Positions 2,223-37,120 of a DNA stretch of 37,589 bases are shown piece after piece. The translations under genes and the position numbers were made by a program. Numbering within the stretch: position 1 is the stretch's first letter; every line of letters begins with the position of its first letter. The notes below the pieces were generated by a model that did not search any database, had not been told where the DNA came from, and was given only the letters and a program-made list of their open reading frames with translations. Origin of the DNA: a virus; the IMG/VR virus record IMGVR_UViG_3300045988_046639, positions 1 through 37,589 of that record; one strand, written 5' to 3'.

Positions 2223-2697
2223 TGTCTTCGTTAACGATTTTATCCGCTACTTCCAAACCTTTAGTTAATACACTAGGTACGCTATATCCACATTGTACAA
2301 GATTCTCAATAATGCTACGCACTTCATTAATGCATAAAGAAGCTAACACAAACCAACCTAATAATGTAGTTACATGGAAATCAATTCCTAGCATTTTTCC
2401 AATCTCTACCAAGAATGCACTGAACGTGAACGCAACTACAATCATAATCCAATAGCCTAGCTTTTTAAGGACTCCAATCCATCCTTTATTGCTATTGATT
2501 TTGTGATTAATCGCCGACTTCATGCACCCTGTAATATAATCCACGACGTTCATAAATAAGAAGAACGCAAATAAATACCAATGCTCGCCTAATACGTATG
2601 TTAATACGGCTACGGCTACACCACCAATTGCATTCATCTTGTCTAGAAAATACATACTTCTTGTTATTTGTTTAAATCCTCCATTTTTCTTTTCTAT
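2197..2697 (-). CDS. Holin (phage_holin_4 / TcdE-like, multi-TM)
   Basis: TM-rich sequence with GGVAVAVLTYVLGEHWYLFAFFLFMNVVDYITG. The probable start is ATA at 2697, 8 nt after AAGGAG; the ORF-track GTG at 2706 lies inside the SD. Confidence 0.8.
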   Translation of the reverse strand: MEKKNGGFKQITRSMYFLDKMNAIGGVAVAVLTYVLGEHWYLFAFFLFMNVVDYITGCMKSAINHKINSNKGWIGVLKKLGYWIMIVVAFTFSAFLVEIGKMLGIDFHVTTLLGWFVLASLCINEVRSIIENLVQCGYSVPSVLTKGLEVADKIVNEDNDESSTLE

Positions 2698-2709
2698 TAA
2701 ATTCACTCC

Positions 2710-3723
2710 TTACATGATTTTTAAATTATCAACCTCTAATTCTAAGGTTCTATATCCACTTTTAATGACTTCAAATATATTTCTAATTCTCGCAGTCATT
2801 ACTAGTCCAATATCTGCTACTATAACATCAACTTTATCACCTAAATCAAAATCAACTTTGTATTCGTATGAATCAGTATTCAATCCGAAATTCACATTTT
2901 CTTGAATTTGACAATCTGCTAGTTTTTCAATTCCTTTCTGAATAAGTACCTTTTTATATTCATCAAGTGTCACATCGTCCCCCATACGCTCAGAACGTGC
3001 GTCTACGAACAATTTTTTAATTCTTTCATTCTTATCTATTCTAGCGTCATATTCAACGTATATACGCTCTTCTGATTGTCCTTCACCACAAATGATTGCA
3101 TAGTTCTTGTATTTACTTGAGTCAATCATAACGTCCGGTTCTTCAATGTTTCCAAACTCTGTAGAGAATGTGACAAAGTTGTTTCCATCTGCATTGTTTT
3201 GAGTTAAATCACGCCCTCGATACAACACGAATGTGAACGTACTTGATACATAGTCATATTCTATACGGAACGACAATTCTAACGGATATAACAACTCATA
3301 AAGCTTCTCGTCAAGGTTCGCTCCTGTTTCTTGAAAATCTACTCTATCGGTAATGGATTCATCATATCTATACCCCATTTTCCATGAGCAATACTTGTCT
3401 AATAGCTTTTTGACCACATCAACAATTTTTCCGCTACTTGAGAATGTAGGATAAATACAATCATCTGCTAGAATCTTTTCAAAGAAAGAACCTTTTAATA
3501 GCATTTGTTTCGTGTTGTTTGAAACGGAATAATGCGGTATTTCTACAATTCCTAACTCTTTATCCTCAGTTGAATAAATATATTTGATATCGCTCGAATA
3601 CTGCCCTATATCAATATAAATCTCGAAATCTCCTGTTTCATAATATCGCCGATTCCACTGCACGTTATAAGGTGCTAGATGTGTAACAATATTGAAATCT
3701 TTATCTAATCCAAAGTAAGACAT
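2710..3723 (-). CDS. Tail/baseplate protein (siphovirus Gp37-like, Tal position)
   Basis: Position immediately after Dit, and the N-terminal MSYFGLDKDFNIV... pattern. The family assignment is from memory only. Confidence 0.5.
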   Translation of the reverse strand: MSYFGLDKDFNIVTHLAPYNVQWNRRYYETGDFEIYIDIGQYSSDIKYIYSTEDKELGIVEIPHYSVSNNTKQMLLKGSFFEKILADDCIYPTFSSSGKIVDVVKKLLDKYCSWKMGYRYDESITDRVDFQETGANLDEKLYELLYPLELSFRIEYDYVSSTFTFVLYRGRDLTQNNADGNNFVTFSTEFGNIEEPDVMIDSSKYKNYAIICGEGQSEERIYVEYDARIDKNERIKKLFVDARSERMGDDVTLDEYKKVLIQKGIEKLADCQIQENVNFGLNTDSYEYKVDFDLGDKVDVIVADIGLVMTARIRNIFEVIKSGYRTLELEVDNLKIM

Positions 3724-3724
3724 A

Positions 3725-4594
3725 CTATAAACCTAAATACCTTTCATTATAGTAAACAGTGCAAGCTAGGTTGGTATCTCCGTTGTCTGCCGTATATCCT
3801 ATGATATTCTCACCTAAATTAATAGTCATATCATTGAATGATGATGTTCTATCAACTTTGCCGATACAATTCACACCATTTTTCTTTATCGAAATAGGTT
3901 CAGAAACTAAATCAATTTCTAATACATCACCATTGTGTAGCGTATCTAATACACGAATATATTTATCTTTGTTGAATAGTTTCGGATTTGTTACCTCTCC
4001 AAACGCTTCAATAACGGCTCTACAATATGTTTCTGTATCGCCTTGATTATCAATATAGATTTCTCTAGCGAATGTAAATGTTCCAAAGTTTACGCCTGTT
4101 TCCGGTATTTCAAAATTGAACGCTAAACCTTCACCAATTTCTGCTATATTCCTTGCGAAATCATCAAATGAAAGCAACAAAGGTTGCGTGCATAGAATTG
4201 TAAAGTTAAGCTCTAAATCTTTGTAGATGTTAACTGTAGGCAAGCTATATGCGTATAACCTTCCTCTGCAATACTTCTTTTCTCCCATGTACTCAACTAT
4301 AATGTCAAACACATGAGAATATTGGAAGAAGCGCCGTAGCTTCTCCCTTTCTTCTCTTTTTTCTTCTAGTGAACCTTTGAAGGTAGCTTTCACACTTCTT
4401 TCTTTTGTTGGAATACGTGAACCGATTAATCTAGCACCGTTTCCGAATGCGTTGTCTTGTGTTGTATATGAAGGTGCTACATAATCAAATCCATCTAAAC
4501 CATCACTAGATGGTATTCTCCATCTTTTGTTGTCGATTTCAAATTCTTTGCCATCATCCCTACGGACGATAACTCTTACTTTATTGATATCTAT
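3725..4594 (-). CDS. Distal tail protein (Dit)
   Basis: The frame is open to 4639 with no ATG/GTG/TTG upstream of 4393. ATA at 4594 lies 9 nt after GGAGG and overlaps the TMP stop (ATAG). The N-terminal extension is IDINKVRVIVRRDDGKEFEIDNKRW... Confidence 0.8.
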   Translation of the reverse strand: MDINKVRVIVRRDDGKEFEIDNKRWRIPSSDGLDGFDYVAPSYTTQDNAFGNGARLIGSRIPTKERSVKATFKGSLEEKREEREKLRRFFQYSHVFDIIVEYMGEKKYCRGRLYAYSLPTVNIYKDLELNFTILCTQPLLLSFDDFARNIAEIGEGLAFNFEIPETGVNFGTFTFAREIYIDNQGDTETYCRAVIEAFGEVTNPKLFNKDKYIRVLDTLHNGDVLEIDLVSEPISIKKNGVNCIGKVDRTSSFNDMTINLGENIIGYTADNGDTNLACTVYYNERYLGL

Positions 4595-7170
4595 TGAACA
4601 ACACCTCCATATCCATATCTTGCTTGCATACGTAACATTCTAGCAATTTCATCCGGACTTTGAACTTTATTGTAGAAGTTGATAGTCTGTCCATTGTTAT
4701 TTGTCGTTACGCTTGGCATGATTTGAGCCATATCTTTAGCTACGGCACGAATCCACGCTTTATTTTTTTCTAAAGGTACGACGGCTTCTGCACCATTACC
4801 TTCTAACAAGCCAATTTGACCACGTTTTAATACACCACCACGTTCTAATCTTGGAATCTTTCCAATGTGAACACCTGGAATCTTATTGATGATTCCGATT
4901 GCACCGTTAATGCCACCGATAACACCATTTACCATTCCTTTTACACTAGAGACTAATGAACCTACTGCTCCTTCAATTCCACTAAATACACCACTTACAA
5001 ATCCTTTTAAACCGCTCCATGAATTCTGTATTCCTTGTAGAACATTTGAAATTTTATTTCCTACATTGTCCATCACACCTTGAACTTTAGACCAAATGCC
5101 ATTAAATACATCAGAAACAGTACTCTTAACATTATTGAAATATTTATTAATATTATCAATAACACCTTGAACCTTGTCTCTTACCTTGTTCATGGAATCT
5201 TGAATTTTACTCCAAATTTTGTTTATGATATCCGAAACCGTCTTAAATAAATTGCTTACGAACCCAATAATCGCAGTAACTACTTCGCTAACCTTACTCC
5301 AAATATTCTGAGCAACCGTTAATATTACAGACCAAATATTCGCTACGATTGTAGCTACAATTTGAACAATAGGCATGATAAATCCTAGTATTGTTGCAAT
5401 TGCAGTTCCTACATACGTCACAACCATAGTTATAAATGAAATGATTCCACTTACCACACTTCCAACAACTTGAAGGATAGATGTTATTACAGGAATCATG
5501 CCGATAACTGTTTGAATAATCTTCTTAATGATTGCTAGAATTGGTGGTCCTACAACGCTAAGAATCTTTTGAGCTTGGTTAACAACATTTTGAATTGCGT
5601 TACCAATTTTACCTAAGATTTCTTTTGCGATAGGTTCAAGCGCAACTTTCATTTCATCAATAGCTTTTCTAACTTCATCAAACGCAGGAGCTAACACTTC
5701 GGAAACTTGATTTGTTAATTCTGTAATTCCACTTGTATCAATCTTACTTAATACGCTTGAAATTACATCACCAACTTTAGCAAATCCTTGTTGAATGCCT
5801 TGAATTGCTACTGTAATCAATCCTACAATGCCTGCAAGAATAGGGGTAATAAGTTCGCCTATTGGAGTAAATGAATCAAGAAATGCGCGTCCTAAGCCAC
5901 TTAAAGCGTTCTTTAAGCCACCATTTGCGATATCTTTAACTTTATCCATTGCCCCTTCTACATCTTTATATTTATTCCCTACTGTTGTTAAGGACTGAAT
6001 GAATCCGGCGTTGAAATCTTCTCCCATTGTACCGAATGCTTTAGCCATCTTTTGACGCTTTTCTTCTTCGTTAGTTGTAGTTCGTATATCTTCAACAATA
6101 GCGTTAATTACTTCTTTTTCTGTCGCTCCACCTTCTTGCCAAGCTTTAAACATATCCTGTGTCTTATCGTTAAACATATCTAGTGAATCGCTAACAGTTC
6201 CATCTGCAATTCGGTTTGTAACTTCGTTGATTGCGTCATTTACTTTATCAAGGTTATAAGCTCCACCGTCTAAACCATTTTGCATTAATTGGAAATATTC
6301 CTTTGCCGAATATCCTGCTTGCTTAAATTTACCGGAGTATTCCGAAATGTTGTCACCTAACTCATCTGATTTGTTTAAACCATTCTGAGCACCTGTAGCC
6401 ATAAGGTCGAAAGCTTCTTGAGAAGTGATTCCGAACTGCTTCATTAATTGTTGAGCGCCTCTAAGAGTTTCATTCTCATCCATATCGAATGTATCTCTTA
6501 AAGTTAATAAATCCTCGGTCACGTTCTTTAGGTCAACATCACTTATGCCTTGCATTTGTTGCTTGACTCTGCCCATCATATCGGCAACATCTGAAACATC
6601 TTCACCGAAATTATTAGACCAAACATCACGAGCAATGTTTTTAAATTTGCTCATTTCATTACTTGAAGCACCTGTCTGAGCTTGGAATTTAGCCATAGCG
6701 TCATCTAATTCAGTAGCTTGGTTAACACCTGTTTTAATCGCTAATGCCATTCCACCGATAGCTCCTGCTACGGCAGTAACGCCTACAACACCTCCAACTC
6801 CTAACCCTGTTAAAGTTTCAGTGATTGCAGTAGCTTCCGGACTAATATTCTGAATCTTTCCTAATAGTCCATCAAATCCACCTTGAATTGATTCTAAGGC
6901 ACTGTTTCCTACTTGTTTAAATACATCAAATTTAGAACCTGTTTCTTGCGTTTCTGTTTGTGTATTCTTTTGCTCTTCGTTTAATTCTTTAAGTTTATCT
7001 TTAATTTTTGGTGGTGCTTTTGAACCATCAGAACCTAGCTTGTCGATTGCTTTTGAAGTATCTTTGATAGCATTTGTTGCTTTACTTGATACCTTGCTAA
7101 CCGATTCAATACCATTTTCAAGACCACTTGTATCTAGCCTTGTATCGAACTTTAATGTTCCATCTGCTAT
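4591..7170 (-). CDS. Tape measure protein (about 860 aa)
   Basis: Long helical and TM-rich protein in the expected position. The frame is open to 7170 and the first canonical start is 140 codons in. ATA at 7170 follows the GGAGGTGG SD and gives (M)ADGTLKFDTRLDTSGLENG... Confidence 0.9.
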   Translation of the reverse strand: MADGTLKFDTRLDTSGLENGIESVSKVSSKATNAIKDTSKAIDKLGSDGSKAPPKIKDKLKELNEEQKNTQTETQETGSKFDVFKQVGNSALESIQGGFDGLLGKIQNISPEATAITETLTGLGVGGVVGVTAVAGAIGGMALAIKTGVNQATELDDAMAKFQAQTGASSNEMSKFKNIARDVWSNNFGEDVSDVADMMGRVKQQMQGISDVDLKNVTEDLLTLRDTFDMDENETLRGAQQLMKQFGITSQEAFDLMATGAQNGLNKSDELGDNISEYSGKFKQAGYSAKEYFQLMQNGLDGGAYNLDKVNDAINEVTNRIADGTVSDSLDMFNDKTQDMFKAWQEGGATEKEVINAIVEDIRTTTNEEEKRQKMAKAFGTMGEDFNAGFIQSLTTVGNKYKDVEGAMDKVKDIANGGLKNALSGLGRAFLDSFTPIGELITPILAGIVGLITVAIQGIQQGFAKVGDVISSVLSKIDTSGITELTNQVSEVLAPAFDEVRKAIDEMKVALEPIAKEILGKIGNAIQNVVNQAQKILSVVGPPILAIIKKIIQTVIGMIPVITSILQVVGSVVSGIISFITMVVTYVGTAIATILGFIMPIVQIVATIVANIWSVILTVAQNIWSKVSEVVTAIIGFVSNLFKTVSDIINKIWSKIQDSMNKVRDKVQGVIDNINKYFNNVKSTVSDVFNGIWSKVQGVMDNVGNKISNVLQGIQNSWSGLKGFVSGVFSGIEGAVGSLVSSVKGMVNGVIGGINGAIGIINKIPGVHIGKIPRLERGGVLKRGQIGLLEGNGAEAVVPLEKNKAWIRAVAKDMAQIMPSVTTNNNGQTINFYNKVQSPDEIARMLRMQARYGYGGVVQ

Positions 7171-8131: not shown

Positions 8132-8638
8132 TTATACTTCTGATGTGCCTTCTGTGAAGGTTACTGTTCCATCTGCTACCTTTGCAACACCGACACGAAT
8201 ATCGCTTGCAAAGTTAATATTGAAGTTGATTTTTGAATCGGCACCGCTTAATGTATCGAAAATCAATTTAGCGTCAACTTCCCACGCTTTATAGCCTTTA
8301 GTTTTGTCTCCGTCAAACATGAATACAAGTAAAGCTTTTGTATTTACTTCTTCATTGTTTGGTACGGATTTCATCATTTGTTCGTAAATATATTCAAAGT
8401 CATCTTCGCCTTTAATCATTGTTAAATCTTGCGAAATCTGAGGTGAATAACTCTTTAATGATTCGGTTGGGTTCTTATCTGCGATAAAGTCATACGTTTC
8501 AGTTTCACTGTTAAATGAAATATCTAAAGTTGTAGATTTCTTAATTCGCTTGTAACCTTCTCCCATTTGTAAGAACAATCCAATCATATACTTCTTGACT
8601 GTTTGCCCTGTATTTACTTCAGTTCCTTGAGTTGCTAT
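8132..8638 (-). CDS. Major tail protein
   Basis: Position and size. ATA at 8638 lies 8 nt after AAGGAG (TAATA overlap with the upstream stop). The internal ATG at 8587 has no SD. Confidence 0.65.
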   Translation of the reverse strand: MATQGTEVNTGQTVKKYMIGLFLQMGEGYKRIKKSTTLDISFNSETETYDFIADKNPTESLKSYSPQISQDLTMIKGEDDFEYIYEQMMKSVPNNEEVNTKALLVFMFDGDKTKGYKAWEVDAKLIFDTLSGADSKINFNINFASDIRVGVAKVADGTVTFTEGTSEV

Positions 8639-9057
8639 TAATTAAGCTCCTTTCTGTATTTAATTTGAATAGTCAACGCATATACTGCTTGATTATCCTC
8701 ATTTGTGTATAGATATAAACCACTTGAAACGGAAACATCATCACAATATCTGTTTCCGTCTAGTTGTGGTAATTCTCCGCTTAAATTCTTTTCGTCAATC
8801 CAATTTTCTAATTCTTCTAGAAAAACATTGTTATCTTGTCTTTCTGATTCAATTTGTGTATTCCTACGTGCTAAAAATGTATAGTATTCTGTACGCATTT
8901 GAGAGCCGTCAATGTATGTATCTACAATTGCGTTAGGCTCTTTATACAACGCATAAGATATAGCTTGTTGAGCTAATACATCCGTTTCAATACGTTCATC
9001 TATCTGTATGTTTCCATAGCCATAAAGCCACTGAATCAATGCTTTTGATACTGTCAT
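8638..9057 (-). CDS. Head-tail joining / tail completion protein (minor-capsid-3-like)
   Basis: Synteny with Sfi11-type head-tail genes. ATGA overlap with the upstream gene. Confidence 0.45.
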   Translation of the reverse strand: MTVSKALIQWLYGYGNIQIDERIETDVLAQQAISYALYKEPNAIVDTYIDGSQMRTEYYTFLARRNTQIESERQDNNVFLEELENWIDEKNLSGELPQLDGNRYCDDVSVSSGLYLYTNEDNQAVYALTIQIKYRKELN

Positions 9058-9416
9058 TCACTGTCTCCTATCATTTGTTGTGCTTTCTTTAAGATTGTTT
9101 CTGCTCCACCATTTCGCATAGCTTTATCAAACCAATGGTCTGTTTTACCTCCTACAAAATGGGCATTCTCTTTATTGTAATACCACCGTCTCGCATATGG
9201 TGCACTTGGTCCACCTTGCTTTACTAATCCACTACCGATTTGTGTCAATCGTGTAGCCGAGTTAATCAATGCTCCTGTATCTCTAGGCGTATAAGGGGTC
9301 ATAAGCCTAATAACTTCGGAGTCAATCATTTGTTGAACTCTGCCACGTTCTTCAAGTCCTCTTGATTGTTTAATTTTGGGGATTGATTCAACATCAAGTT
9401 TAACTTTGATACCTAT
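9054..9416 (-). CDS. HK97 gp10-like head-tail protein (minor-capsid-2-like)
   Basis: RLMTPYTPRDTGALINS motif. The likely start is ATA at 9416, overlapping the upstream TAG (ATAG). The ORF-track ATG at 9488 would overlap the upstream gene by 76 nt. Confidence 0.6.
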   Translation of the reverse strand: MGIKVKLDVESIPKIKQSRGLEERGRVQQMIDSEVIRLMTPYTPRDTGALINSATRLTQIGSGLVKQGGPSAPYARRWYYNKENAHFVGGKTDHWFDKAMRNGGAETILKKAQQMIGDSE

Positions 9417-10196: not shown

Positions 10197-10301
10197 CTAT
10201 TTTTCTTTTTGAGGTTTAGCTTCCTCTTTTTTTGTTTGAGGTTTACCTTTTTTAGGCTTTTCAACTTTAGAAGGATAACCCCATCCGATTTCTTTCGCCA
10301 T
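10197..10301 (-). CDS. Small Lys-rich peptide (34 aa)
   Basis: ATG overlaps the capsid gene stop (TAATG). Sequence is MAKEIGWGYPSKVEKPKKGKPQTKKEEAKPQKEK. It is below the ORF-track cutoff. Confidence 0.35.
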   Translation of the reverse strand: MAKEIGWGYPSKVEKPKKGKPQTKKEEAKPQKEK

Positions 10302-11170
10302 TACTTAGCACTAGCAGATAAGTAAATACCTGCTACCTTATTTTGATATACATCAACAATTCCATACTTACGATATTTCAATACATCTGAATCTGATTCA
10401 ATGTTATTGCTTGCAGGAATTACATTTGAAACGGTGTGTTTATCCCATTTCATAACGGCAGGTTTATGAACAATCAAGAAGTTGATTACGTGTCCATCTT
10501 CTGCCTTTTCGTATCCGCCCTCTAACTCTGTATCTTTTCCACTCAACAATTTGATTTTTGTATAGAAGCGACTAGCAGGTACAGGAACAACTTTTGCGAA
10601 TCCTTGTAAAGCTTCACGTGATTTGTAAGTGTCCAACGCCTTAACGCTATTTAATAATGTTGGTGTTGAATACAAGATACGTTGTTCGCTAGGAACTTCA
10701 TCCTCATCCATTTTAGTGATAGCCGTTAACAATGCGCTCAAGAACTCTTCTGCACCTGTATAATCTTCTGAAACCTTTGTGATTCCTGTTGTGCCGGCAA
10801 TCTTAGCGAATGTGTAAGCGTCTGCTTCCGGTGCAACCTTTGTACGCATTAATTCTGCTCCTGCCATGCCGAATGCAATATTCATTGATTCTGCGTTATC
10901 TTGTGTATCAACTGAGATTTTAGTTCCTCTATCATAGTCGAATGTAGCAGTTTTCCATTCTAACTTAACTGAGTTACCTGTATAACCACTGTTTCTATCG
11001 TAGTTTCCTAAACCTTTAACAGAAATTTGTGGATAAATGATTTCTTTTGCATTTGCTCCGGCTCGTACCATTGTAGCGTCTGCGTTTAAATCACCTGTAA
11101 CTGAAGCTAACTTATATACCTCATCCAAATTTGAGACATACGTTTTAGCTAATGTAATTTGATTTGGTAT
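10301..11170 (-). CDS. Major capsid protein
   Basis: Position after the scaffold gene. The frame opens right after a TAA. ATA at 11170 lies exactly 9 nt after AGGAGG and gives (M)PNQITLAKTYVSNLDEVYKLASVTGDLN, a capsid-family N-terminus. The ORF-track TTG at 11128 truncates it. Confidence 0.85.
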   Translation of the reverse strand: MPNQITLAKTYVSNLDEVYKLASVTGDLNADATMVRAGANAKEIIYPQISVKGLGNYDRNSGYTGNSVKLEWKTATFDYDRGTKISVDTQDNAESMNIAFGMAGAELMRTKVAPEADAYTFAKIAGTTGITKVSEDYTGAEEFLSALLTAITKMDEDEVPSEQRILYSTPTLLNSVKALDTYKSREALQGFAKVVPVPASRFYTKIKLLSGKDTELEGGYEKAEDGHVINFLIVHKPAVMKWDKHTVSNVIPASNNIESDSDVLKYRKYGIVDVYQNKVAGIYLSASAK

Positions 11171-14715: not shown

Positions 14716-15324
14716 CTAACCCCACATTGTGTTTAAATCGTTTGTTGTAATCGCCGTTAATTCTGATTTCTTAACATACGCCGATAAATCAATGTCTGTA
14801 TTACCAATCTTTTCATATGTCTTTGTCTCTGAAAGCCAAATATACTCATCATAAATATCTTGCGTGCCGTGTGAATGTGCTACCAAATAAATCACACCAT
14901 TTGAACCTGTAGCAGGTAAGCTAGTTACCTTTTCATATCTAATAGATGTAATATTACCTACTGCCGAATTAATCAACGATTGTACTTGTGATTGCGTTTG
15001 ATACCCTTTAGCCGTGATAATTGACTCAACGCTCGTCGCCGACTGATATCCATTGTCATTTGTTAATTGTGATGTCTTTGTAGGCACTGTAACATCCACG
15101 GCTTTTGAGCTTGGCGTTAATTTCGTACCATTTACCTTTACAGACTCAATCACATTCACTTGAGCACCACTTGCGATACCACTTAATTTTTGCTTTTCTG
15201 CGCTAGTATAGTCATTTGTCGATAAGCCTTTACCACTTACGACATCAACTTTCCCACCTAACGCCGATTTAATTTTGCTAATCAAGAGCGTTAGTCCACT
15301 CTTATCTAAATATTCAATAGCTAT
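14716..15324 (-). CDS. Fibre protein (GKGLSTNDYTSAEKQKL repeat type)
   Basis: ATA at 15324 lies 7 nt after GGAGG and gives (M)AIEYLDKSGLTLLISKIKSALGG. The ORF-track TTG at 15285 truncates this conserved-looking N-terminus. Confidence 0.65.
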   Translation of the reverse strand: MAIEYLDKSGLTLLISKIKSALGGKVDVVSGKGLSTNDYTSAEKQKLSGIASGAQVNVIESVKVNGTKLTPSSKAVDVTVPTKTSQLTNDNGYQSATSVESIITAKGYQTQSQVQSLINSAVGNITSIRYEKVTSLPATGSNGVIYLVAHSHGTQDIYDEYIWLSETKTYEKIGNTDIDLSAYVKKSELTAITTNDLNTMWG

Positions 15325-15665: not shown

Positions 15666-15961
15666 GTAATCACTTCCTTATTCAATACTCTATATACCTT
15701 TGTTGTCTTGATAGGAGAAGCAATAGCAACTCCTCCTTTTGTAATCATTCTTAATTGAATGTTACAAGTTCCCTCTTTGAAATTGAGCGTTTCTTCTTGG
15801 CTTAACGATACTGAAATAGTATTTCCTTCAATGTCTAAATCACTTGATTCTTTTTTCAAGATATATCCGTTCTGTTCAAATACCACATAGATATTCTGCA
15901 TTTCATTTAAATCAATATCGTTTATTGTGATTTGAATTGTTGGCGTTGTTCCTTGTCTCAT
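15662..15961 (-). CDS. Small beta-rich structural protein
   Basis: ATG at 15961 forms an ATGA overlap with the upstream stop and follows AAGGTGA. Confidence 0.55.
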   Translation of the reverse strand: MRQGTTPTIQITINDIDLNEMQNIYVVFEQNGYILKKESSDLDIEGNTISVSLSQEETLNFKEGTCNIQLRMITKGGVAIASPIKTTKVYRVLNKEVIT

Positions 15962-16767
15962 GATTTCACCTTGTAAGTCCAATCTTTGCCTACTTCACCT
16001 TCATCAACTTCATACGCCCAATCTGCTAGAATCTCATGCCCATTCTCATCTACTAGTGTTCCATCTTCTGTTAATAAGATTGTAGTGAAATGGTTCTCCA
16101 TAATCATCTTTTCAATATTTGAAATTCTATTTGATAACTTTCCTGCCGTATTTGCGTCTAACGTATCTTTTACAGTTTCAAACCAATCATTGAACTCTGT
16201 TCTATTTGCGTTCATTTCAGATTCGTTCTGAGCCTTAATTTCTTTGAATAACTCAGTAACTTGAGTGAATAAATCCAACGATTGTACGCTCTTAATTGCA
16301 CTTGTAACTGCTCCACAACGTGTAGAATCTAATCTTGTATCAGTAATATCTGAGCCTTTAACTTCGCTTGCATTGCCTGTTATGGTGACCGTAGCTAATA
16401 CTAAATCGTAAATAGAATCACTTCTTGTGATTCCATCATTGATATCACTTGCTACTAAGGTAATGTTTCTGTATGCGTCATTATCATTCAATCTAAGAAT
16501 AATATTGTAGCTTTTAGTTGCGCTATTCTTTTCTAATGTGATGGTTTCGTCATCTTTCTGCCAATAGAACGCTCCGTTAATATTTGCTCGTCCTGCCTTA
16601 ACTGTAAGCGTTAAGCCTTGAGCTTTCTCAACTCTTAAATGGTCTGAACTAGAATCATCTACGAACACACCATTTGTAAAATAACTTGAGAACAATCTTC
16701 TGAAAGCGTCATATAATACTAATCTATCGCCATTTCTCGAAACGAATGGAAAATATGTAGTTGCTAT
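15958..16767 (-). CDS. Fibre/structural protein (YFPF...GDR N-terminal family)
   Basis: ATA at 16767 overlaps the portal stop (ATAG), 9 nt after GAGGGGGA. It gives (M)ATTYFPFVSRNGDRLVLYDAFRRLFSSYFTNGVF. Confidence 0.65.
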   Translation of the reverse strand: MATTYFPFVSRNGDRLVLYDAFRRLFSSYFTNGVFVDDSSSDHLRVEKAQGLTLTVKAGRANINGAFYWQKDDETITLEKNSATKSYNIILRLNDNDAYRNITLVASDINDGITRSDSIYDLVLATVTITGNASEVKGSDITDTRLDSTRCGAVTSAIKSVQSLDLFTQVTELFKEIKAQNESEMNANRTEFNDWFETVKDTLDANTAGKLSNRISNIEKMIMENHFTTILLTEDGTLVDENGHEILADWAYEVDEGEVGKDWTYKVKS

Positions 16768-18167
16768 TCTTCATCATCCCCCTCTCCATCATCTTGAATT
16801 TCTTCATTTAATAACTCCGTTGCTTCTTCTTCAGTAAATCCGTATTGCTTCATAAAGTACATAATCTTTAATCTTGGAATATCAAATGTTAGTGCGTCAT
16901 TTCTTAACGCTTGTGCAGTGCTTTGCTTATCCTCGATATATGTATCATCATAATCAATAGCAATGTCTAATGAATTGATATTAAGCTTTCTGCCTTGTGT
17001 TAATTCATAAAAGTATGCTATTGCTTGAATGATATCTTGAATATATGCAGTAGATTCTTTACGTTGTGAGTTAACTTCCTTCATTGCGTCTTGATTCTCA
17101 CCGATATATTCTGTAGCCGTCACAATTCTTCCACTTTCAAATGTGTATTTCTTTGTACCGAATCCAAACATCATTGATAATATGCTCAATGCAGTTTCTA
17201 ACGATTGGACAACTTCTTGTGTTCTTACTGTTGGATTGTACTCTTGCCATAAAGCTTTTTCTTCCGGTAGCTTATCCCTACCTAACTGAACAAAGATATT
17301 CTTTAATTGTGGGTTCTGTTTCACTTTTCCGTTCTTGTCTTTTTGCATTAATGCTTCATTTACAAGAACGATTTTATCTGACTTTAACAAATCACGATTC
17401 CACATTGTCATTGTCAAATCAATTGTTTTTAGTGGAGCGATTGCGCTCCAAATCTTTGGTAAGCCGTACCCTTGCATTTGTAAGTTGTTTACCTTTGCGT
17501 TTCTCATGATTGCAAACGGCTTAACCACATCTAATTGAACAATCTGAGCACGCTCTTTTATTTCTTCACCTGTGTCTTTGAAGTAATGTGTTTCTGCAAT
17601 ATATCTTTCGTCTTGCCCTTTTAAGAACATGACCATCACATATACTTTTTTTAGTTTCTCATAATTTACTCCAACAAAAGCTACCTCAACGATTTCATCA
17701 TTGATAACAGTCAATGGAAGGATATTCATTGAATCACAATAGTTGATTCTGATTTCTCCTCCACTGAATGTACCATCTTCATAAATCTCGGCATTCGATA
17801 CCGTTACATAAGCTCCTACCGTACCATTTGCAGACATTTGCTCAACTTGCTTCCTATACATAACATCAAATCTATTCTTCGTTAGAATGTCTGAAATAAT
17901 GTCATTTGTTGTACTGTCCTCAGTGGCGTTTATATCTAGGATTTCAATAAGGTTTGCGTCATCCTCGCATAAACGCTTTGCAAAGTCTGTCTTGTCTAAT
18001 GTGTATTCCTCGTTGTTCAAGGTATATGCCGTATGAAATTCTGTTTCGGTATTTGTATACCACTTATTACACAATTCAATAATCTCAATTGCGTTTGTAT
18101 CTACATAATACCCTCTTTCGTTTAGGTAATTCTGAAACCACGGTCTACGTGTGTTAGATGTTTCTAT
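16764..18167 (-). CDS. Portal protein
   Basis: Position after TerL, size, and acidic C-terminus. The frame opens after the TerL TAA, and ATA at 18167 lies 6 nt after AAGGAGG. The ORF-track TTG at 18074 is 31 codons in. Confidence 0.8.
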   Translation of the reverse strand: METSNTRRPWFQNYLNERGYYVDTNAIEIIELCNKWYTNTETEFHTAYTLNNEEYTLDKTDFAKRLCEDDANLIEILDINATEDSTTNDIISDILTKNRFDVMYRKQVEQMSANGTVGAYVTVSNAEIYEDGTFSGGEIRINYCDSMNILPLTVINDEIVEVAFVGVNYEKLKKVYVMVMFLKGQDERYIAETHYFKDTGEEIKERAQIVQLDVVKPFAIMRNAKVNNLQMQGYGLPKIWSAIAPLKTIDLTMTMWNRDLLKSDKIVLVNEALMQKDKNGKVKQNPQLKNIFVQLGRDKLPEEKALWQEYNPTVRTQEVVQSLETALSILSMMFGFGTKKYTFESGRIVTATEYIGENQDAMKEVNSQRKESTAYIQDIIQAIAYFYELTQGRKLNINSLDIAIDYDDTYIEDKQSTAQALRNDALTFDIPRLKIMYFMKQYGFTEEEATELLNEEIQDDGEGDDEE

Positions 18168-19520: not shown

Positions 19521-19910
19521 TTATTCAAAATCTTCAATTCTTCTTTCTTTTGCTACATCTGTAATCATAGCCTTATTAATTGCATTTACTTCTGAAGCGT
19601 CAAAATGTGTTTCTACCTTATCTGCTTGACCTAGGAATTGTTTGCCTAAGAAAATAGCCATTGCAGGACTCTTTGAAGCTAGTTTAAATTGCACTCTTCG
19701 TAACGAAATTCTTCCTTGTGCGCCGAACCTTTTTAAACATTCGGAGAAATCAGTTCCATATGTACGTTTACACCATTTTGATAGTGTCTTATCTGTCGTG
19801 TTAAAAAAATAACATACTTCTGCTTGCGTGCATTGAATAGCTAACAATTTTTCAAATTCTTCTTTGTCGAAATCCTTGTTAGGTCTTCCAACTTTTCCAT
19901 TCGCTATTAT
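19521..19910 (-). CDS. terS: Terminase small subunit
   Basis: HTH-like N-terminus. The frame opens after a TAG. Tandem ATA ATA at 19910/19907 lie 4-7 nt after AAAGGGGA and give (M)ANGKVGRPNKDFDKEEFEKLLAIQCTQAEV. The first canonical start is TTG at 19847. Confidence 0.75.
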   Translation of the reverse strand: MIANGKVGRPNKDFDKEEFEKLLAIQCTQAEVCYFFNTTDKTLSKWCKRTYGTDFSECLKRFGAQGRISLRRVQFKLASKSPAMAIFLGKQFLGQADKVETHFDASEVNAINKAMITDVAKERRIEDFE

Positions 19911-20320: not shown

Positions 20321-20396
20321 TGGTTGCAGGAGAAGGAATTGCACCGTTCGACCTCTAGCTAATAAGACTAGTGAGCTACTACTGCTCTATCCTGCT
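20321..20396 (-). tRNA. tRNA-like gene with anticodon UAU (reads AUA) and initiator-like acceptor and D arms; non-canonical T arm
   Basis: Manual cloverleaf: AGCAGGA UA GAGC AGUAGUA GCUC A CUAGU CUUAUUA GCUAG AGGUC GAA(C)GG UGCAAUU CCUUC UCCUGCA ACCA. It shows U8, A14, G18, A21, U33, G53:C61 and an encoded CCA. Confidence 0.6.
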
Positions 20397-20436: not shown

Positions 20437-20749
20437 CTTTCTTTAAGTTTTTATTTATTTTTCTTGGAATTTCTTCTCTTGCATAACCTACAATATTAGA
20501 TGTCTTTTCTGCACTGAATCCCTTTATATATCTATACTCAATCATTGTTCGAGTTGTATCATCAAGTTGGCTTAATTTTTCTTTTACATAGTTCATTCTT
20601 CTTGCATAATCTGCATGAGCCAAGAATAGCTCGGCTTTTAATGGATAAATTGCTTCATCCCTTTGTAGCTCGGCTATCTTTTGCTCATAGTATGTATAAG
20701 ATTGGCATTCACACAAGAAGTGTCTCTTAATATCTTCATATGTGCTCAT
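20423..20749 (-). CDS. Late-gene transcriptional activator (sigma-r4-like, ArpU/RinA-type position)
   Basis: DDTTRTMIEYRYIKGFSAEKTSNIVGYAREEIPRKINKNLKK is an HTH pattern. It is the last gene before the packaging module. Confidence 0.55.
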   Translation of the reverse strand: MSTYEDIKRHFLCECQSYTYYEQKIAELQRDEAIYPLKAELFLAHADYARRMNYVKEKLSQLDDTTRTMIEYRYIKGFSAEKTSNIVGYAREEIPRKINKNLKKVLTM

Positions 20750-20940
20750 GATGTATACATCCTTATTAATCTATCTTCTAATTCGCCAACTTTATTCTTT
20801 AATTTATTAATTTCATGTGTTTGATTATTAATTGTTTCATTTCTTTCTTTTAAAATCTGATTAAGCTTAATATTCGCCCTTCCAAGTCTATTGTTTTTTG
20901 AAATTAACTCTTTAATCCTTTCTTCATAATTCATTTCTAT
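20746..20940 (-). CDS. Coiled-coil small protein
   Basis: The start is ambiguous. ATA at 20940 lies 6 nt after GGAGGTG; ATG at 20934 lies 12 nt after it. Confidence 0.5.
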   Translation of the reverse strand: MEMNYEERIKELISKNNRLGRANIKLNQILKERNETINNQTHEINKLKNKVGELEDRLIRMYTS

Positions 20941-20956: not shown

Positions 20957-21544
20957 TTAATTTAATGATTTGATAAAATCACAATATCGTTTTATATAAC
21001 TCCATTTGTTTGAATATTTGTAATATTTGCTAGAATGCTCTCCTACGCTTATTTGACTTATTCCTATAACATCTTTACTAGGAATTACCAATACATCTAA
21101 AACCTGTTCATCATCACTAAGTATGTACAAGATATATATGTCACAAGTTGGATATGTTTTTTCTAAATTGAATGTGTAAAAGCTCCCATTCCTACCTCTG
21201 TATAAGGTGCTTGCTTTCACATCAACTTTTACACATTCATTCACTAAAATATCATACGGATGTTTTGTAGACATTTTAATAGCTTCATATCCTTTGCCCT
21301 CTATGTAATCCATAAATTTTAATTCATATTTTCTGCCGAAATTTGTTCTACTTGGTTTTGATTCCAAATGTAATTCTTTCGCTAAAGGAAACCATAAATT
21401 TCTTTTTGAAATTGCATTGCCTAATCTTGAATCACCATAATATTCTTCAACTTCTCTCCTTGTAGGCATTCTGTTTAATCCTGTATCAATAATCATTTCT
21501 TTGATTTGTGATTTTATCTTTTCTTCTGTCCAATGTTCTCTTAT
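20957..21544 (-). CDS. PD-(D/E)xK endonuclease (PDDEXK_5-like) with an N-terminal helical repeat
   Basis: GRKYELKFMDYIEGKGYEAIKMSTKHPYDILVNECVKVDVKAS core. ATA at 21544 lies 5 nt after GGAGGT. The internal ATG at 21496 has no SD. Confidence 0.55.
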   Translation of the reverse strand: MREHWTEEKIKSQIKEMIIDTGLNRMPTRREVEEYYGDSRLGNAISKRNLWFPLAKELHLESKPSRTNFGRKYELKFMDYIEGKGYEAIKMSTKHPYDILVNECVKVDVKASTLYRGRNGSFYTFNLEKTYPTCDIYILYILSDDEQVLDVLVIPSKDVIGISQISVGEHSSKYYKYSNKWSYIKRYCDFIKSLN

Positions 21545-26555: not shown

Positions 26556-27290
26556 TTATGCACCAAACAGTTGTGCTCTAAGCCTATTAAATTCATCTTG
26601 TACTTCTTTATCCGTCTTTGTGCTCTGCTCTATATAAAACTTTGAATCAAGCGTGATAGGCTTATCTTTATTTCTTTTCATCCATTCATCATGAACCCAC
26701 TTCTGAATCACGAGTGAATGATTTTTATACTTCTTTCCACTCGTTTCAATGTACTCATCCAAAATCTTTATATGCTCATCTAATGAATCACCATATAAAT
26801 CTAATAGGTGTGTGTGTTCTTTATCTGTTAAAAGAACGTGTTGATATTCTCCGTATTTGTGTTTACTTACTTTTAATTTATTATTAATTTTAGTATTAAT
26901 AGCTTTATTATTATCTGTATACATTTCTACACTAGGGGTAGTATAAAAATTTACACTAGGGTCATGTACGTTTTTATATGGGGTAGTATAAAAATTTACA
27001 CTAGGGTTGATATATAATTTTCGTTGCAATACTTGTTTTGTTCCTTCTTTATAAATCAACTCTAAACTGATATACCCTTTTTTAACTAATGCACTAATCC
27101 ATTTTTTTACCGCAGATACTGAACAATGATACAAATCTGCGAAATATTGATTTGTTGCCCAACAATATCCTTTTTCATTACACAATGATGTAATTTCTCC
27201 ATACAATAGTTTTGCGTTTGGTGACAATTCTTCATCATATCGAACTTCTGCAGGTATTATTGCGTAATACGATTTCTTTAGTTCTGCTAT
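26556..27290 (-). CDS. Replication initiator / replisome organiser (HTH, DnaD-like)
   Basis: LSPNAKLLYGEITSLCNEKGYCWATNQYFADLYHCSVSAVKKWISALVKKGYI, with iterons inside the gene. The likely start is ATA at 27290, 6 nt after GGTGGAGGTG; the TTG/GTG options lie inside the SD. Confidence 0.7.
   Translation of the reverse strand: MAELKKSYYAIIPAEVRYDEELSPNAKLLYGEITSLCNEKGYCWATNQYFADLYHCSVSAVKKWISALVKKGYISLELIYKEGTKQVLQRKLYINPSVNFYTTPYKNVHDPSVNFYTTPSVEMYTDNNKAINTKINNKLKVSKHKYGEYQHVLLTDKEHTHLLDLYGDSLDEHIKILDEYIETSGKKYKNHSLVIQKWVHDEWMKRNKDKPITLDSKFYIEQSTKTDKEVQDEFNRLRAQLFGA
26935..27006. repeat. Origin-like iterons: 27-bp direct repeat GGGGTAGTATAAAAATTTACACTAGGG x2 plus a third TACACTAGGG
   Basis: Copies at 26935-26961 and 26980-27006, with an extra TACACTAGGG at 26928-26937. 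They encode the repeated PSVNFYTTP in the initiator. Confidence 0.75.
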
Positions 27291-27291: not shown

Positions 27292-27642
27292 CTAATCACC
27301 TCCACCAAGCACTACGTCTTGCTTTAGGATTTCATCAATGATTTTTTCGATATATTCTAGATAGCAATCTATCTTAATATCGTTATAAGGTGCATCAAGC
27401 TTGTACAATGCTTTATATATTGCTTTAACTCCTACCCTATACAATCCCTCTTTTGTGTAGTCATAACATCCATCTAACATATATATAAATTCTTCGGTGA
27501 TGTCATGAATTGTACACGCTTCATTAAATACATCCTTTGAATTTGTATCTCCTATGCTTCTTTCTGCAATTTGATAAAACAAGTTGAATTCATCAAAGTA
27601 AATTTGCTTTGCTACGTTTACTGCCATTTCTTGCTCTCTCAT
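27292..27642 (-). CDS. Hypothetical protein
   Basis: ATGA overlap with the rusA stop. Confidence 0.55.
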   Translation of the reverse strand: MREQEMAVNVAKQIYFDEFNLFYQIAERSIGDTNSKDVFNEACTIHDITEEFIYMLDGCYDYTKEGLYRVGVKAIYKALYKLDAPYNDIKIDCYLEYIEKIIDEILKQDVVLGGGD

Positions 27643-28007
27643 ATGATTTCTACCTCTATTCTTGGATTCTCCTTATCTGTAAATACTGAATGATTCACTT
27701 GATTAATGTACTTCCTTGAATCATCTTCTAATATTCCTGTTCTAACTAATGAATCTTGAATGAATTTAGTAGCGAATGTGATATTATCAATATCTCTTCT
27801 GTTGTCTTGCTCATACCAATTAATATTTAATTTGATAGGATAGTTCTTAACCTCGTATACTTCACCGAAATTTACTGCCTGTAAGATATAAGCCATTACA
27901 AGACGCTCGTTCTTTTTTACCATTTCTGCTCCCTTGTAACGATTGGCTCGGCAAGCTCTAATATATTCATTCAATCCATCTAGCTTTCCTTTTATTACAA
28001 ACTTTAT
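27639..28007 (-). CDS. rusA: RusA-family Holliday junction resolvase
   Basis: GKLDGLNEYIRACRANRYKGA...DIDNI...KFIQDSLV pattern. ATA at 28007 overlaps the upstream TAA (ATAA), 6 nt after GGGGGA, and gives (M)KFVIKGKLDGLNEY. Confidence 0.75.
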   Translation of the reverse strand: MKFVIKGKLDGLNEYIRACRANRYKGAEMVKKNERLVMAYILQAVNFGEVYEVKNYPIKLNINWYEQDNRRDIDNITFATKFIQDSLVRTGILEDDSRKYINQVNHSVFTDKENPRIEVEII

Positions 28008-30830: not shown

Positions 30831-30999
30831 TTTCGTACACCTCCATTCTAGATTCACAAGTATTGATTTCGTTTACCTCTTGTAAATCTCTAAGATTTAA
30901 CCGATTCGCAATCTCTTTTGCTTCTTCACTGTCATGTGCTTCAACCTCGAACGTAACATTTGCAGTTACGTCGAAGGTTACGAAATATGTTCTAGTCAT
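30820..30999 (-). CDS. Small hypothetical protein
   Basis: ATG at 30999 lies 5 nt after AAGAGGTGA. Confidence 0.5.
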   Translation of the reverse strand: MTRTYFVTFDVTANVTFEVEAHDSEEAKEIANRLNLRDLQEVNEINTCESRMEVYESDY

Positions 31000-31120
31000 C
31001 TTTCTCACCTCTTTTCGATTCATCTAAGATACAAGCGATATATCCTTGATAAAACTCTGAAAGCTCATAGCCTTTCTTTTGTAGCTCGCCTAAGGCTTCA
31101 AAAATTCTCTTGTCTAGTAT
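30992..31120 (-). CDS. Small ORF (42 aa) with an ATA start
   Basis: ATA at 31120 lies 5 nt after GGAGGTG. There is no canonical start anywhere in the frame. The stop overlaps the next ATG. Sequence is (M)LDKRIFEALGELQKKGYELSEFYQGYIACILDESKRGEKDD. Confidence 0.4.
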   Translation of the reverse strand: MLDKRIFEALGELQKKGYELSEFYQGYIACILDESKRGEKDD

Positions 31121-31185
31121 TGTTTCACCTCCATGACCTGTCTCATCAGTGCTAGTAGGTCATCTCTAGCAGACTAGCCTAGTGG

Positions 31186-31359
31186 CTAGTTTCGACATAC
31201 TTTGACATCTATTCGCTTGTCTGTTTCTTTTAAACTCACATCATATTTCAATGGGATTGCTATGATTCTCCCATCAACATGTAAATAAAGTAATAAAGCG
31301 TCTGTTTCCCATTTGTAACAATTACCTTTGTAACTATCATTTATATATAAAGATTTCAT
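31186..31359 (-). CDS. Small hypothetical protein (57 aa)
   Basis: ATG follows AAGGAGGA. It is below the ORF-track cutoff. Confidence 0.45.
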   Translation of the reverse strand: MKSLYINDSYKGNCYKWETDALLLYLHVDGRIIAIPLKYDVSLKETDKRIDVKVCRN

Positions 31360-36091: not shown

Positions 36092-36140
36092 GACCATCCT
36101 CCTTTCCTTTAATTCCTTGCCTTTATCTGACCACATATAT

Positions 36141-36169: not shown

Positions 36170-36182
36170 GAACTTTTTTAGG

Positions 36183-36212: not shown

Positions 36213-36258
36213 TACCATAAATTAATATCAAAATGAATATTAACCTCAAAGCCATATA

Positions 36259-36276
36259 AATTATAGCACATAAAAG
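36259..36276. repeat. 18-bp repeat AATTATAGCACATAAAAG (copy downstream of the endolysin gene)
   Basis: An identical copy lies at 37145-37162. On the minus strand it reads as an extended -10 element, TGcTATAAT. Confidence 0.8.
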
Positions 36277-36303
36277 CAAAGACCGTACAGAATCATACGG
36301 TCT
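36270..36303 (-). terminator. Terminator after the endolysin gene
   Basis: The minus strand reads AGACCGTA-tgattctg-TACGGTCT followed by TTGCTTTTAT. Confidence 0.6.
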
Positions 36304-36340
36304 AATATACGAAAAAATAGTTGAAGGTTTTATATGTAAT

Positions 36341-37120
36341 TTATGCAACTTCAATTAAAGGTCCACAATTTACCCAAATTCCACCGATTTTTGCAAGGTT
36401 CTTTTGCACATTGACTTCATCAACACGAATTCTTGTAACATAGACAACGGCATTTGTTGTATGCAATACGTTATCATTATATCCATCAGAATAGCGAACT
36501 TTGTCAACCATACGAATTGGAAACCAACCACCTAATTGTGCAAGGTATGCGCATAAATCGCCATTGATTTGTTTCAATCCTTGATTGCCAATCTTCATTT
36601 GTACGGATGTTACGTAGCTTCCTGCGTGCAAGATTTGGTCAATTGCTTCTTTTGACTGAGGTTTAGGCTTAACAGTTTGCACTGGTTTAGCATTTGCAAG
36701 ACATTTAGGTCTAAAAGCAGTATCGAATGTGGCACTGTATGGTAATTTGCATAAAGTAAATGCTCCATTTCTTCCGCCTTGATTCTGTCCTAAGAACCAT
36801 CCGAATTTACCATCAATATCTGAATCGAAAATTGCGATATGTGAGTATGGAGTCCATCCTGCTACTTCTTTAAATACCGCAATGTCTCCAGGTTGCATTA
36901 CTGTAACTTCGTTGCAATAGTTTAAAATTCCGTTTGTCTTACGATTGTTCCAAATGTCTTTTACATAACCGGTTGTTGTGCAATGAATAGCCTTATAGCC
37001 TAGATAAATCAACCACTTCATACCACCGTCCCAACACTGCGCACCATATGCATGGTCAAGGTCAAACGCTTTGCCCAATACGGCATTTTTAAATTCTTGA
37101 TAAATTTCTTGATAATTTAT
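36341..37120 (-). CDS. CHAP-domain endolysin with a C-terminal cell-wall-binding domain
   Basis: HAYGAQCWD (Cys) and YSHIAIF (His) CHAP motifs. ATA at 37120 lies exactly 9 nt after AGGAGG and gives (M)NYQEIYQEFKNAVLGKAFDLD. The ORF-track TTG is at 37078. Confidence 0.85.
   Translation of the reverse strand: MNYQEIYQEFKNAVLGKAFDLDHAYGAQCWDGGMKWLIYLGYKAIHCTTTGYVKDIWNNRKTNGILNYCNEVTVMQPGDIAVFKEVAGWTPYSHIAIFDSDIDGKFGWFLGQNQGGRNGAFTLCKLPYSATFDTAFRPKCLANAKPVQTVKPKPQSKEAIDQILHAGSYVTSVQMKIGNQGLKQINGDLCAYLAQLGGWFPIRMVDKVRYSDGYNDNVLHTTNAVVYVTRIRVDEVNVQKNLAKIGGIWVNCGPLIEVA

Follow-up and report, generated by a model that had tools for sequence, protein, structure and literature searches.

We analysed a 37,589-nt virus contig (IMG/VR record IMGVR_UViG_3300045988_046639, positions 1 to 37,589; this whole stretch is called the window below) in which 16 genes begin with ATA behind ordinary Shine-Dalgarno (SD) sequences, and which carries at 20396-20321 a gene for a tRNA whose anticodon, UAU, reads AUA. 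The ATA starts are real. The tRNA gene bears the hallmarks of an initiator, and across phage lineages the anticodon of this tRNA family matches the non-canonical start codon in use. Initiation at AUG, GUG or UUG by an initiator tRNA with the anticodon CAU counts as a near-universal rule in bacteria and their viruses. On the sequence evidence set out here, we think it probable that the phage encodes an initiator tRNA whose anticodon has been reassigned, and that this tRNA turns ATA into a start codon private to the phage.

Sixteen genes start at ATA

Our own gene model of the minus strand comprised 68 genes, with 46 ATG, 16 ATA, four TTG and two GTG starts. ATA opened 11 of the 30 late and 5 of the 33 early genes; the integrase and repressor genes start at ATG. 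The initial annotation had proposed ATA starts for about 15 genes, and we found each listed codon in place on the minus strand, 4-11 nt past a GGAGG-type SD, with the 9-nt spacing given for the capsid, distal tail protein (Dit) and endolysin genes also correct. Its claim that this usage, which it put at roughly one gene in five, lies far outside normal practice holds; here, ATA opens about a quarter of the genes. The 16 ATA codons lie 5-11 nt past a strong SD. The duplex energies of SD and anti-SD at the ATA starts ranged from -8 to -16 kcal/mol, and when candidate starts were scored by SD energy, ATA was the first SD-backed candidate in 15 open reading frames (ORFs).

As had been claimed, the stretch from the in-frame stop upstream to the ATA holds no ATG, GTG or TTG, and this was true of 12 genes (those with ATA at 37120, 28007, 21544, 19910/19907, 18167, 16767, 15324, 11170, 8638, 7170, 4594 and 31120). 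At 2697, 27290 and 20940, upstream GTG or TTG codons fall only within the SD: GTG 2706 of the holin gene lies in AAGGAGTGA, and the TTG and GTG codons ahead of 27290 lie in GGTGGAGGTGA (SD dG -13.6). The gene at 9416 has an ATG upstream (9488) without an SD; in its relatives, GGGAGGT followed after 9 nt by ATA is the sole option, with no canonical start upstream. Two starts had been left ambiguous. The one at 20940 now stands as an ATA start, kept in all orthologues (Table 1), with an ATG two codons downstream at poorer SD spacing; the one at 29070 is still ambiguous, with a TTG two codons upstream and a weak SD. For the small terminase, offered as 19910 or 19907, the spacing makes 19907 likelier. 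The labels "PD-(D/E)xK nuclease" (21544) and "gp10-like" (9416) found no support in Pfam or PHROGs.

The choice of codon was specific. In an SD-based scan, every ORF had ATG, ATA or, occasionally, GTG or TTG as its first SD-backed candidate. No ORF required ATT, ATC or CTG, in line with the earlier claim, and ATA serves, again as claimed, also as an internal isoleucine codon (174 internal ATA codons). Near-cognate leakiness would be rare, spread over several codons and seen in low-output genes; here, a single non-canonical codon opens 16 of 68 genes, and those affected are the virion genes of highest expression.

ATA marks the N terminus of conserved proteins

Profile and homologue alignments put the ATA on Met1 of the families tested, and conservation starts at the ATA, not at the downstream canonical codon; the initial annotation had judged the added residues to look like genuine family N termini. 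Residues 3-288 of the capsid align with positions 3-294 of the 297 in phrog_422. PHROG profiles match the endolysin from residue 6-7 at profile position 5-9, residue 3 of the head-fibre protein falls on position 8 of phrog_1220, residue 4 of the phrog_24103 gene product falls on position 4 of its profile, and Dit is aligned by phrog_33 from residue 20. Capsid homologues of ~70% identity (289-290 aa) open with M-[PA]-N-x-I-x-L-A-K, exactly over the I-P-N-Q-I-T-L-A-K of the window.

Orthologues in 30-35 independent contigs keep the ATA, with an occasional ATG at the identical position. Across 30 clade contigs, ~96 of 100 orthologue comparisons retained ATA, all with A at -1, and ATG control genes stayed ATG. 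Exchange between the two codons went both ways: one gene with ATG in the window has ATA in a relative, and one fibre gene shows the reverse. Among 79 IMG/VR contigs with similar capsids, the capsid gene starts with ATA in 35/35 at at least 92% identity and with ATG in 44/44 at 46-56%. Two independent Logan contigs (L002 and L003), whose flanks have diverged from the window, keep ATA in the capsid, tape-measure protein (TMP), portal, major tail, Dit, head-fibre and 9416-type genes; in the window, the first ATG of TMP lies 140 codons downstream of ATA 7170. The three closest capsid protein clusters are all called short (275 or 256 aa), and one of them, P0001, has 1224 member sequences, so that gene callers must fail at the capsid start in many assemblies.

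The window encodes a tRNA with initiator hallmarks

Segment by segment, the tRNA reads AGCAGGA UA GAGC AGUAGUA GCUC A CUAGU CUUAUUA GCUAG AGGUC GAAcGG UGCAAUU CCUUC UCCUGCA ACCA. The anticodon UAU sits in the loop CUUAUUA, which places a U at position 37, very unusual for any tRNA. A 1:72 mismatch marks bacterial initiators, and together with the pairs 2:71 and 3:70 it is the main determinant for the formyltransferase Fmt (PMC5389676). The window tRNA has no Watson-Crick pair at 1:72 (A1xA72, as in all 35 UAU-clade copies) and carries the formyltransferase determinants G2:C71 and C3:G70, with A73. It also has a purine11:pyrimidine24 pair, A11:U24, and A:U stands there in 14 of 19 family members; A11:U24 is an initiator trait. 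One of the G:C pairs of the canonical initiator anticodon stem, G30:C40, is retained.

The anticodon is UAU, not the CAU that goes with methionine identity, so the window tRNA is strictly no tRNAfMet. With an elongator tRNA-Ile it shares UAU and the discriminator A73; it has neither the paired 7-bp acceptor stem of such a tRNA (A1xA72) nor its purine 37 and pyrimidine11:purine24 (U37, A11:U24). The D loop (AGUAGUA) has A where G18 is usual, and the T loop (UGCAAUU) has G where psi55 is usual, which is possibly a compensated tertiary pair, A18/G55. A single base is bulged in the T stem; clade members differ in which base this is (C, U or A/G). ARAGORN reported no tRNA in the window, a false negative corrected by Rfam and probably due to the odd D loop, T loop and T-stem bulge.

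The gene sits between a small sigma-70-region-4-like gene and the packaging genes, and a hairpin and then a T-run lie just upstream of it. The resemblance of the small gene to sigma-70 region 4 is faint, below the Pfam cut-off; it is possibly a late regulator. The initial annotation had placed its ATA starts in the range 2695-37120, within which the tRNA gene lies; the tRNA, a mechanism and the -1 A were not part of it.

Homologous tRNAs covary and include ordinary initiators

A covariance model built from the window tRNA found homologues in related prophages. The UAU version is carried by 35 IMG/VR contigs, all with the loop CUUAUUA, on three different compensated anticodon stems. When 19 distinct homologous phage tRNAs were aligned, the cloverleaf was 95% paired and 15 pairs had changed on both sides. 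With 500 shuffles as the null, none reached the observed covariation score or percent paired, and eight reached the 15-pair count. Positions 1 and 72 were unpaired in 17 of the 19 members, with varying bases (AxA, AxG, GxG, GxA, CxA and UxU).

Some family members have the anticodon CAU, a full GGG/CCC anticodon stem and a 1x72 mismatch (L023, from [Clostridium] asparagiforme, and L269-L274). We read these as standard initiators, and the family as descended from ordinary initiators. The nearest sister of the window tRNA to have CAU (L315, L323) shares the tRNA body and has G1xA72 and A37; the phages that carry it are unrelated to the window phage, use canonical starts only and served as a control. 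An elongator tRNA-Ile(UAU) is found in an Anaerotignum prophage (L060, 4975-5050). It is like the window tRNA in anticodon, in A73 and in being phage-borne, and unlike it in its paired A1-U72, C11:G24, A37 and standard D and T loops.

Phage-borne initiator-type CAU tRNAs were also frequent in a sample of IMG/VR contigs chosen for the GAGCAG..AGCUC D arm (L115-L194; e.g., L140, L123 and L183). Besides this D arm, these have either a 1x72 mismatch or U1:A72; often they carry the full 3GC motif (G:C pairs at 29:41, 30:40 and 31:39), and several have U37.

Anticodon and start codon change together

Related prophages at 13 loci carry a homologous 1x72-mismatched tRNA with the anticodon CCU, called tRNA-Arg by ARAGORN (L007, L008, L019, L020, L025, L029, L030, L044, L047, L053, L059, L063 and L065). 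L008 is Roseburia lenta NSJ-9, a cultured strain with the AGG/CCU version. We scored strict orphan-SD sites, i.e., SD sites without a canonical start, by the codon that follows. In the UAU clade this codon was ATA at 40/54 sites and AGG at 0/54; in the CCU-tRNA prophages it was ATA at 1/40 and AGG at 23/40. The CAU-tRNA loci gave neither (0/9 for each), and loci without a family tRNA gave 6/81 ATA and 12/81 AGG. Across lineages, the anticodon therefore matched the codon: UAU with ATA, CCU with AGG, and CAU with canonical starts. An initiator-like tRNA with UAU and A37 was present at one further locus (L179), with no orphan SD sites in its 8.5 kb stretch.

In the CCU prophages, the portal, tape-measure, capsid and some other genes start with AGG behind a normal SD. 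The capsids of L030 and L047 open with AGG-[ST/A]-N-T-I, which falls on Met1 of homologues. The AGG of L030, at 7081, comes directly after TAA; the tRNA of this locus lies at 6367-6440. In nine of ten CCU loci, the first portal start backed by an SD was AGG; most loci lacking the tRNA had ATG there. The special start codon falls on the same gene families in the UAU and CCU lineages (portal, TMP, capsid and Dit). Since AGG mismatches CAU at the middle position, near-cognate reading of AGG by tRNAfMet is unlikely. We regard the CCU/AGG prophages, on these counts and alignments, as a second start-codon reassignment of the same kind.

The base before the start codon matches tRNA position 37

A stood at -1 in 16/16 ATA starts, 26/45 ATG starts and 72/174 internal ATA codons (ATA versus ATG starts, one-sided Fisher p = 8e-4), and all conserved ATA orthologues had it as well. 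G stood at +4 in 11 of the 16 ATA starts. Since U37 adjoins U36, a four-base pairing with AAUA would be within reach of the tRNA. Such -1:37 pairing requires a free -1 base, as is found at initiation alone, and it therefore argues for use in the ribosomal P site. Where the CCU tRNA has U37, A was found at -1 in 15/19 AGG starts; in the two loci whose CCU tRNA has C37, G was found at -1 in 2/3 AGG starts. The covariation of 37 with -1 is suggestive, with small numbers outside the UAU clade.

A proposed orthogonal route of initiation

We infer that the tRNA is used in the P site, charged and formylated, that its position 37 pairs with the -1 base, and that the arrangement serves a regulatory purpose. 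An initiator-type phage tRNA whose anticodon changed from CAU to UAU would bind the P site at initiation and pair with AUA, and U37 would probably add a fourth pair with the -1 A (mRNA 5'-AAUA-3', tRNA 3'-UUAU-5'). SD-ATA sites would thereby become efficient starts for 16 phage genes, and translation of the capsid, portal, tail, terminase, holin, endolysin and some replication genes would depend on the phage tRNA. With AUG as the yardstick, native tRNAfMet in E. coli reads AUA at a level of 0.1-1%, and engineered anticodon-mutant initiators exceed 60% at the non-AUG codons cognate to them (PMC11744186). Because the host tRNAfMet would read AUA so poorly (~0.1-1% of AUG), SD-ATA genes should be nearly silent without the phage tRNA.

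The amino acid carried would probably be isoleucine, possibly formylated; formylation is plausible given the acceptor-stem determinants. The isoleucyl-tRNA synthetase (IleRS) of B. subtilis reportedly accepts a UAU anticodon, and that of E. coli uses t6A37. Recognition by methionyl-tRNA synthetase (MetRS) is not expected, because UAU replaces CAU. A Pfam and PHROG scan of the phage proteins found no translation factor, formyltransferase, aminoacyl-tRNA synthetase or tRNA-modification enzyme. The arrangement may benefit the phage by tightly gating the holin, endolysin and virion genes in lysogens, and it may also give independence from the host initiator tRNA and protection against exploitation by other elements.

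Alternative explanations

Several observations weigh against an initiator role. The full 3GC motif is absent from the window tRNA (A:U/G:C/U.G at 29:41/30:40/31:39) and also from six UAU-clade members (G:C/G:C/U.G). In E. coli, the middle pair G30:C40 suffices for 3GC function, and natural au/GC/gu variants exist (PMC5389676). The T arm, with its bulge and G55, is unusual, and the tRNA folded as a single sequence is no more stable than shuffled ones (z = -0.8), so its structure rests on family covariation. The CAU relatives nearest by score (L033, L034 and L037) have a paired U1:A72 and no mismatch. U37 removes t6A37 and thereby makes aminoacylation uncertain. The numbers behind the 37/-1 covariation are small, as said, and in some close relatives the tRNA position falls outside the stored stretch, so that co-occurrence of tRNA and ATA starts is not proven contig by contig. 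Lastly, the host as a whole may tolerate AUA starts.

This last point belongs to the strongest alternative, which we nonetheless consider unlikely: the tRNA would be an ordinary elongator tRNA-Ile(UAU) that aids AUA decoding in an AT-rich phage, and the host initiator would read the ATA starts, through tolerance of AUA in the host or through strong SDs. Phage elongator tRNAs for rare codons are indeed common, L060 carries a genuine tRNA-Ile(UAU), the phage has its 174 internal ATA codons, and the window tRNA is without the full 3GC motif. However, an elongator would not be expected to keep a 1x72 mismatch in 17/19 family members while all other acceptor pairs covary, and A11:U24 and U37 are atypical of elongators, for which L060 shows the normal pattern. 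The CCU/AGG parallel is hard to explain in this way. Capsid and tail genes, moreover, need high output, which contrasts with the 0.1-1% reading of AUA by native tRNAfMet in E. coli.

It is very improbable that AUA is made equivalent to AUG in the RNA (e.g., by A-to-I editing of the third base) or is read by a host initiator modified at C34, with the phage tRNA irrelevant to either. The invariant -1 A and the frequent +4 G (11/16) could be taken for a recognition motif, and a C34-modified tRNAMet does read AUA in mitochondria. However, a scan of the phage proteins turned up no editing enzyme and no tRNA-modification gene, and this explanation accounts neither for a matching phage UAU tRNA nor for the use of AGG in the sister lineages with a CCU tRNA.

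We give hardly any credence to a third alternative, in which the proteins begin at the downstream ATG, TTG or GTG and the open frames upstream are untranslated leaders. Automatic calls in three assemblies do use the downstream starts (capsid 275 aa, TMP 719, Dit 222 and portal 436). However, the residues encoded upstream show conservation at the protein level and line up with the N termini of homologues and PHROG profiles, and the strong SD precedes the ATA rather than the downstream codon. Downstream starts would cut 140 residues from TMP and 67 from Dit, and the 42-codon ORF at 31120 has no canonical start at all.

An artefact, i.e., a true genome with ATG and a systematic G-to-A error, is practically excluded: the three assemblies with this exact contig all come from one sample, but the same-site ATAs recur in unrelated datasets with diverged flanks (Logan ERR10754278 and SRR31708049, and several IMG/VR sources), the truncated-capsid cluster P0001 counts its 1224 sequences, and codons conserved in this way across independent contigs are not sequencing errors, a possibility that the initial annotation had itself raised. 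A context-dependent G-to-A conversion was ruled out, as AATG occurs 413 times on the coding strand.

The phage genome and neighbouring features

A 55-nt exact direct repeat at the window ends (1-55 and 37535-37589) is the k-mer overlap of the assembler; because it is identical at both ends, the window is a circular assembly of a genome of ~37,534 bp. The same contig, rotated, is scaffold_507 of the metagenome assembly ENA OBRE15-1_SAMN03283272. The minus strand holds nearly all genes (Table 1), in the layout of a temperate siphophage. It comprises an integrase, a repressor and a Cro-like gene, then ERF, SSB, RusA, a C5-methylase and a dUTPase, and further genes for terminase, portal, scaffold, capsid, tail, TMP, Dit, holin and endolysin.

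Near and distant searches of GenBank phage DNA gave no match to the window. A GenBank phage protein search found the closest isolates at <=52% capsid identity and, on that result, the phage has no cultured close relative. A scan of GTDB representatives returned only capsids of <=66% identity, in Lachnospiraceae and other Clostridia. An exact-protein look-up of the repressor returned only re-assemblies of one sample, with no host flank.

Table 1. Coordinates of the tRNA gene and of the genes that start at ATA in the window
Feature	Coordinates	Strand	Start codon and context	ATA in orthologues	Other
Endolysin	36341..37120	-	ATA 37120; SD AAGGAGG, 9 nt spacer, -1 A
42-codon ORF	30992..31120	-	ATA 31120 after GGAGGTGA; no canonical start anywhere	5/5
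RusA-like resolvase	27639..28007	-	ATA 28007	8/8	phrog_1682 aligned from residue 2
HTH_36 replication-initiator-like gene	26556..27290	-	ATA 27290	5/5
195-aa gene	20957..21544	-	ATA 21544, one codon past stop	4/4	phrog_28936
64-aa coiled-coil gene	20746..20940	-	ATA 20940; SD GGAGGTG	25/25
tRNA gene	20321..20396	-			76 nt, CCA encoded; Rfam RF00005, 48 bits, E 2e-7
Small terminase	19521..19907	-	ATA 19907 or 19910 (tandem ATA ATA after AAAGGGGA)	3 close orthologues
Portal	16764..18167	-	ATA 18167, one codon past TAA; SD AAGGAGG	13/13
Head-fibre or virion structural protein	15958..16767	-	ATA 16767	12/12	phrog_1220
Structural or fibre-like gene	14716..15324	-	ATA 15324	ATA 3, ATG 2, same position	phrog_24103
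Major capsid	10301..11170	-	ATA 11170; SD AAGGAGG, 9 nt spacer
120-aa head-tail gene	9054..9416	-	ATA 9416, overlaps upstream stop as ATAG	3/3
Putative major tail	8132..8638	-	ATA 8638, one codon past stop		phrog_3099
Tape measure (TMP)	4591..7170	-	ATA 7170, first codon past TGA; SD AAAGGAGGTGG, dG -16.3
Distal tail protein (Dit)	3725..4594	-	ATA 4594; first canonical codon 67 codons downstream
Holin	2197..2697	-	ATA 2697	2/2	Phage_holin_4_1

Short restriction-type sites were avoided to an extreme degree over the whole window. GATC (110 expected) and GGCC (21 expected) do not occur, CAGC (82 expected) and GCTG (39 expected) are each present a single time, and CCAG and CTGG are depleted. This site-avoiding phage carries a C5 cytosine methyltransferase gene (PF00145) at 26541-25552.

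The large terminase gene (19502-18171, minus strand; ATG start 19502) contains an in-frame TAA stop at 19415-19413. The stop lies in a 6-nt insertion: the window reads GAG GGA GGT TAA GGT AAG where relatives have GGT AAG. L084 and L254 carry another insertion at the identical spot, the 5-nt TAGGC, and 19 other relatives are without an insertion. Both insertions present a Gly take-off codon (GGT), a stop and a Gly landing codon (GGT or GGC), with an SD-like GGGAGG ahead. A short ribosomal hop would restore the wild-type EGGKRGGKN, and the insertion could be programmed bypassing or the mark of a defective gene. Beside the small terminase gene of L002, a close relative of the window phage, stands a gene of the QueT family (queuosine-precursor transporter, PF06177; 819-1238), which the window does not have.

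At 31132-31197 on the minus strand lies a type II hammerhead ribozyme (RF02276; its 39.4 bits exceed the gathering score) whose CUGAUGA and GAAAC cores are intact. It stops 3 nt short of the SD of the 42-codon ORF, and ATA 31120 lies directly 3' of the ribozyme. In two rabbit-gut Clostridia prophages (L031 at ~4230 and L038 at ~170), a 547-codon ORF right after a stop shows GAGGTGGTGA and then CCC CTG; with no canonical start in reach, it may start at CTG.

Relation to known systems

The window tRNA resembles bacterial initiator tRNAfMet in its 1:72 mismatch, G2:C71, C3:G70, A73, A11:U24 and G30:C40, and within its phage family, members with CAU show the complete 3GC motif. Its GAGCAG...AGCUC D arm, AGGUC variable loop and GCAACCA 3' end are, we take it, as in E. 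coli tRNAfMet. Unlike tRNAfMet, it has UAU, one of the three G:C pairs, U37, an altered contact of D loop and T loop (A18/G55) and a bulged T stem.

Engineered orthogonal initiators (amber tRNA-CUA; anticodon-mutant tRNAini, PMC11744186; i-tRNA-AAC preprints) likewise combine an initiator body of changed anticodon with a cognate non-AUG start and a normal SD, and the amino acid that they carry follows the new anticodon. In contrast to these, the phage tRNA is natural and virus-encoded, has co-evolved with 16 starts and occurs with at least two anticodons (UAU and CCU).

In crAss-like and Lak phages, stop codons are recoded by phage suppressor tRNAs, and the recoding is concentrated in late, structural and lysis genes. 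There, as proposed here, a phage tRNA sets the meaning of a codon and late genes depend on it; unlike there, where stops are recoded in elongation, the window phage would alter the start signal, with no interplay with release factors. In animal mitochondria, an f5C34-modified tRNAMet reads AUA and AUG in both initiation and elongation. AUA is a regular start in both cases, through a dedicated change at anticodon position 34, but the window phage is a bacterial virus with a separate tRNA gene and a genomically encoded U34.

Extended pairing between A37 of tRNAfMet and a U at -1 was reportedly proposed by Esposito et al. (2003, EMBO J). Here too, tRNA position 37 is complementary to the base that precedes the start codon; unlike a mild preference, the A(-1):U37 match seems obligatory in the window (16/16, and conserved orthologues). 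In the open-access literature and preprints we found no description of a natural phage initiator tRNA with a non-CAU anticodon, an absence that is no proof.

Significance

One consequence already holds. Standard gene callers truncate or miss ATA-start genes in thousands of metagenome assemblies; in the window, the calls are short by 14 residues for the capsid, 140 for TMP and 67 for Dit, and the tRNA was missed by ARAGORN.

Taking the lineages together, we find it reasonably likely that a family of siphophages of gut Clostridia/Lachnospiraceae carries reassigned initiator tRNAs (UAU; CCU) with matching ATA or AGG starts on virion, packaging and lysis genes and a four-base reading of -1 and 37, and so possesses an orthogonal initiation channel. 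If true, this would be the first natural start-codon reassignment, as far as the literature searched shows, and the start-codon counterpart of phage stop-codon recoding. It would offer synthetic biology evolution-tested parts for orthogonal initiation. For the phages themselves, the first residue of proteins would be (formyl-)Ile or Arg rather than Met and the host initiator would not be needed, so that host defences or shut-off acting on tRNAfMet may be escaped. Protein synthesis in the lytic cycle would be gated on a phage RNA, adding a new layer to the control of lysis-lysogeny and late gene expression.

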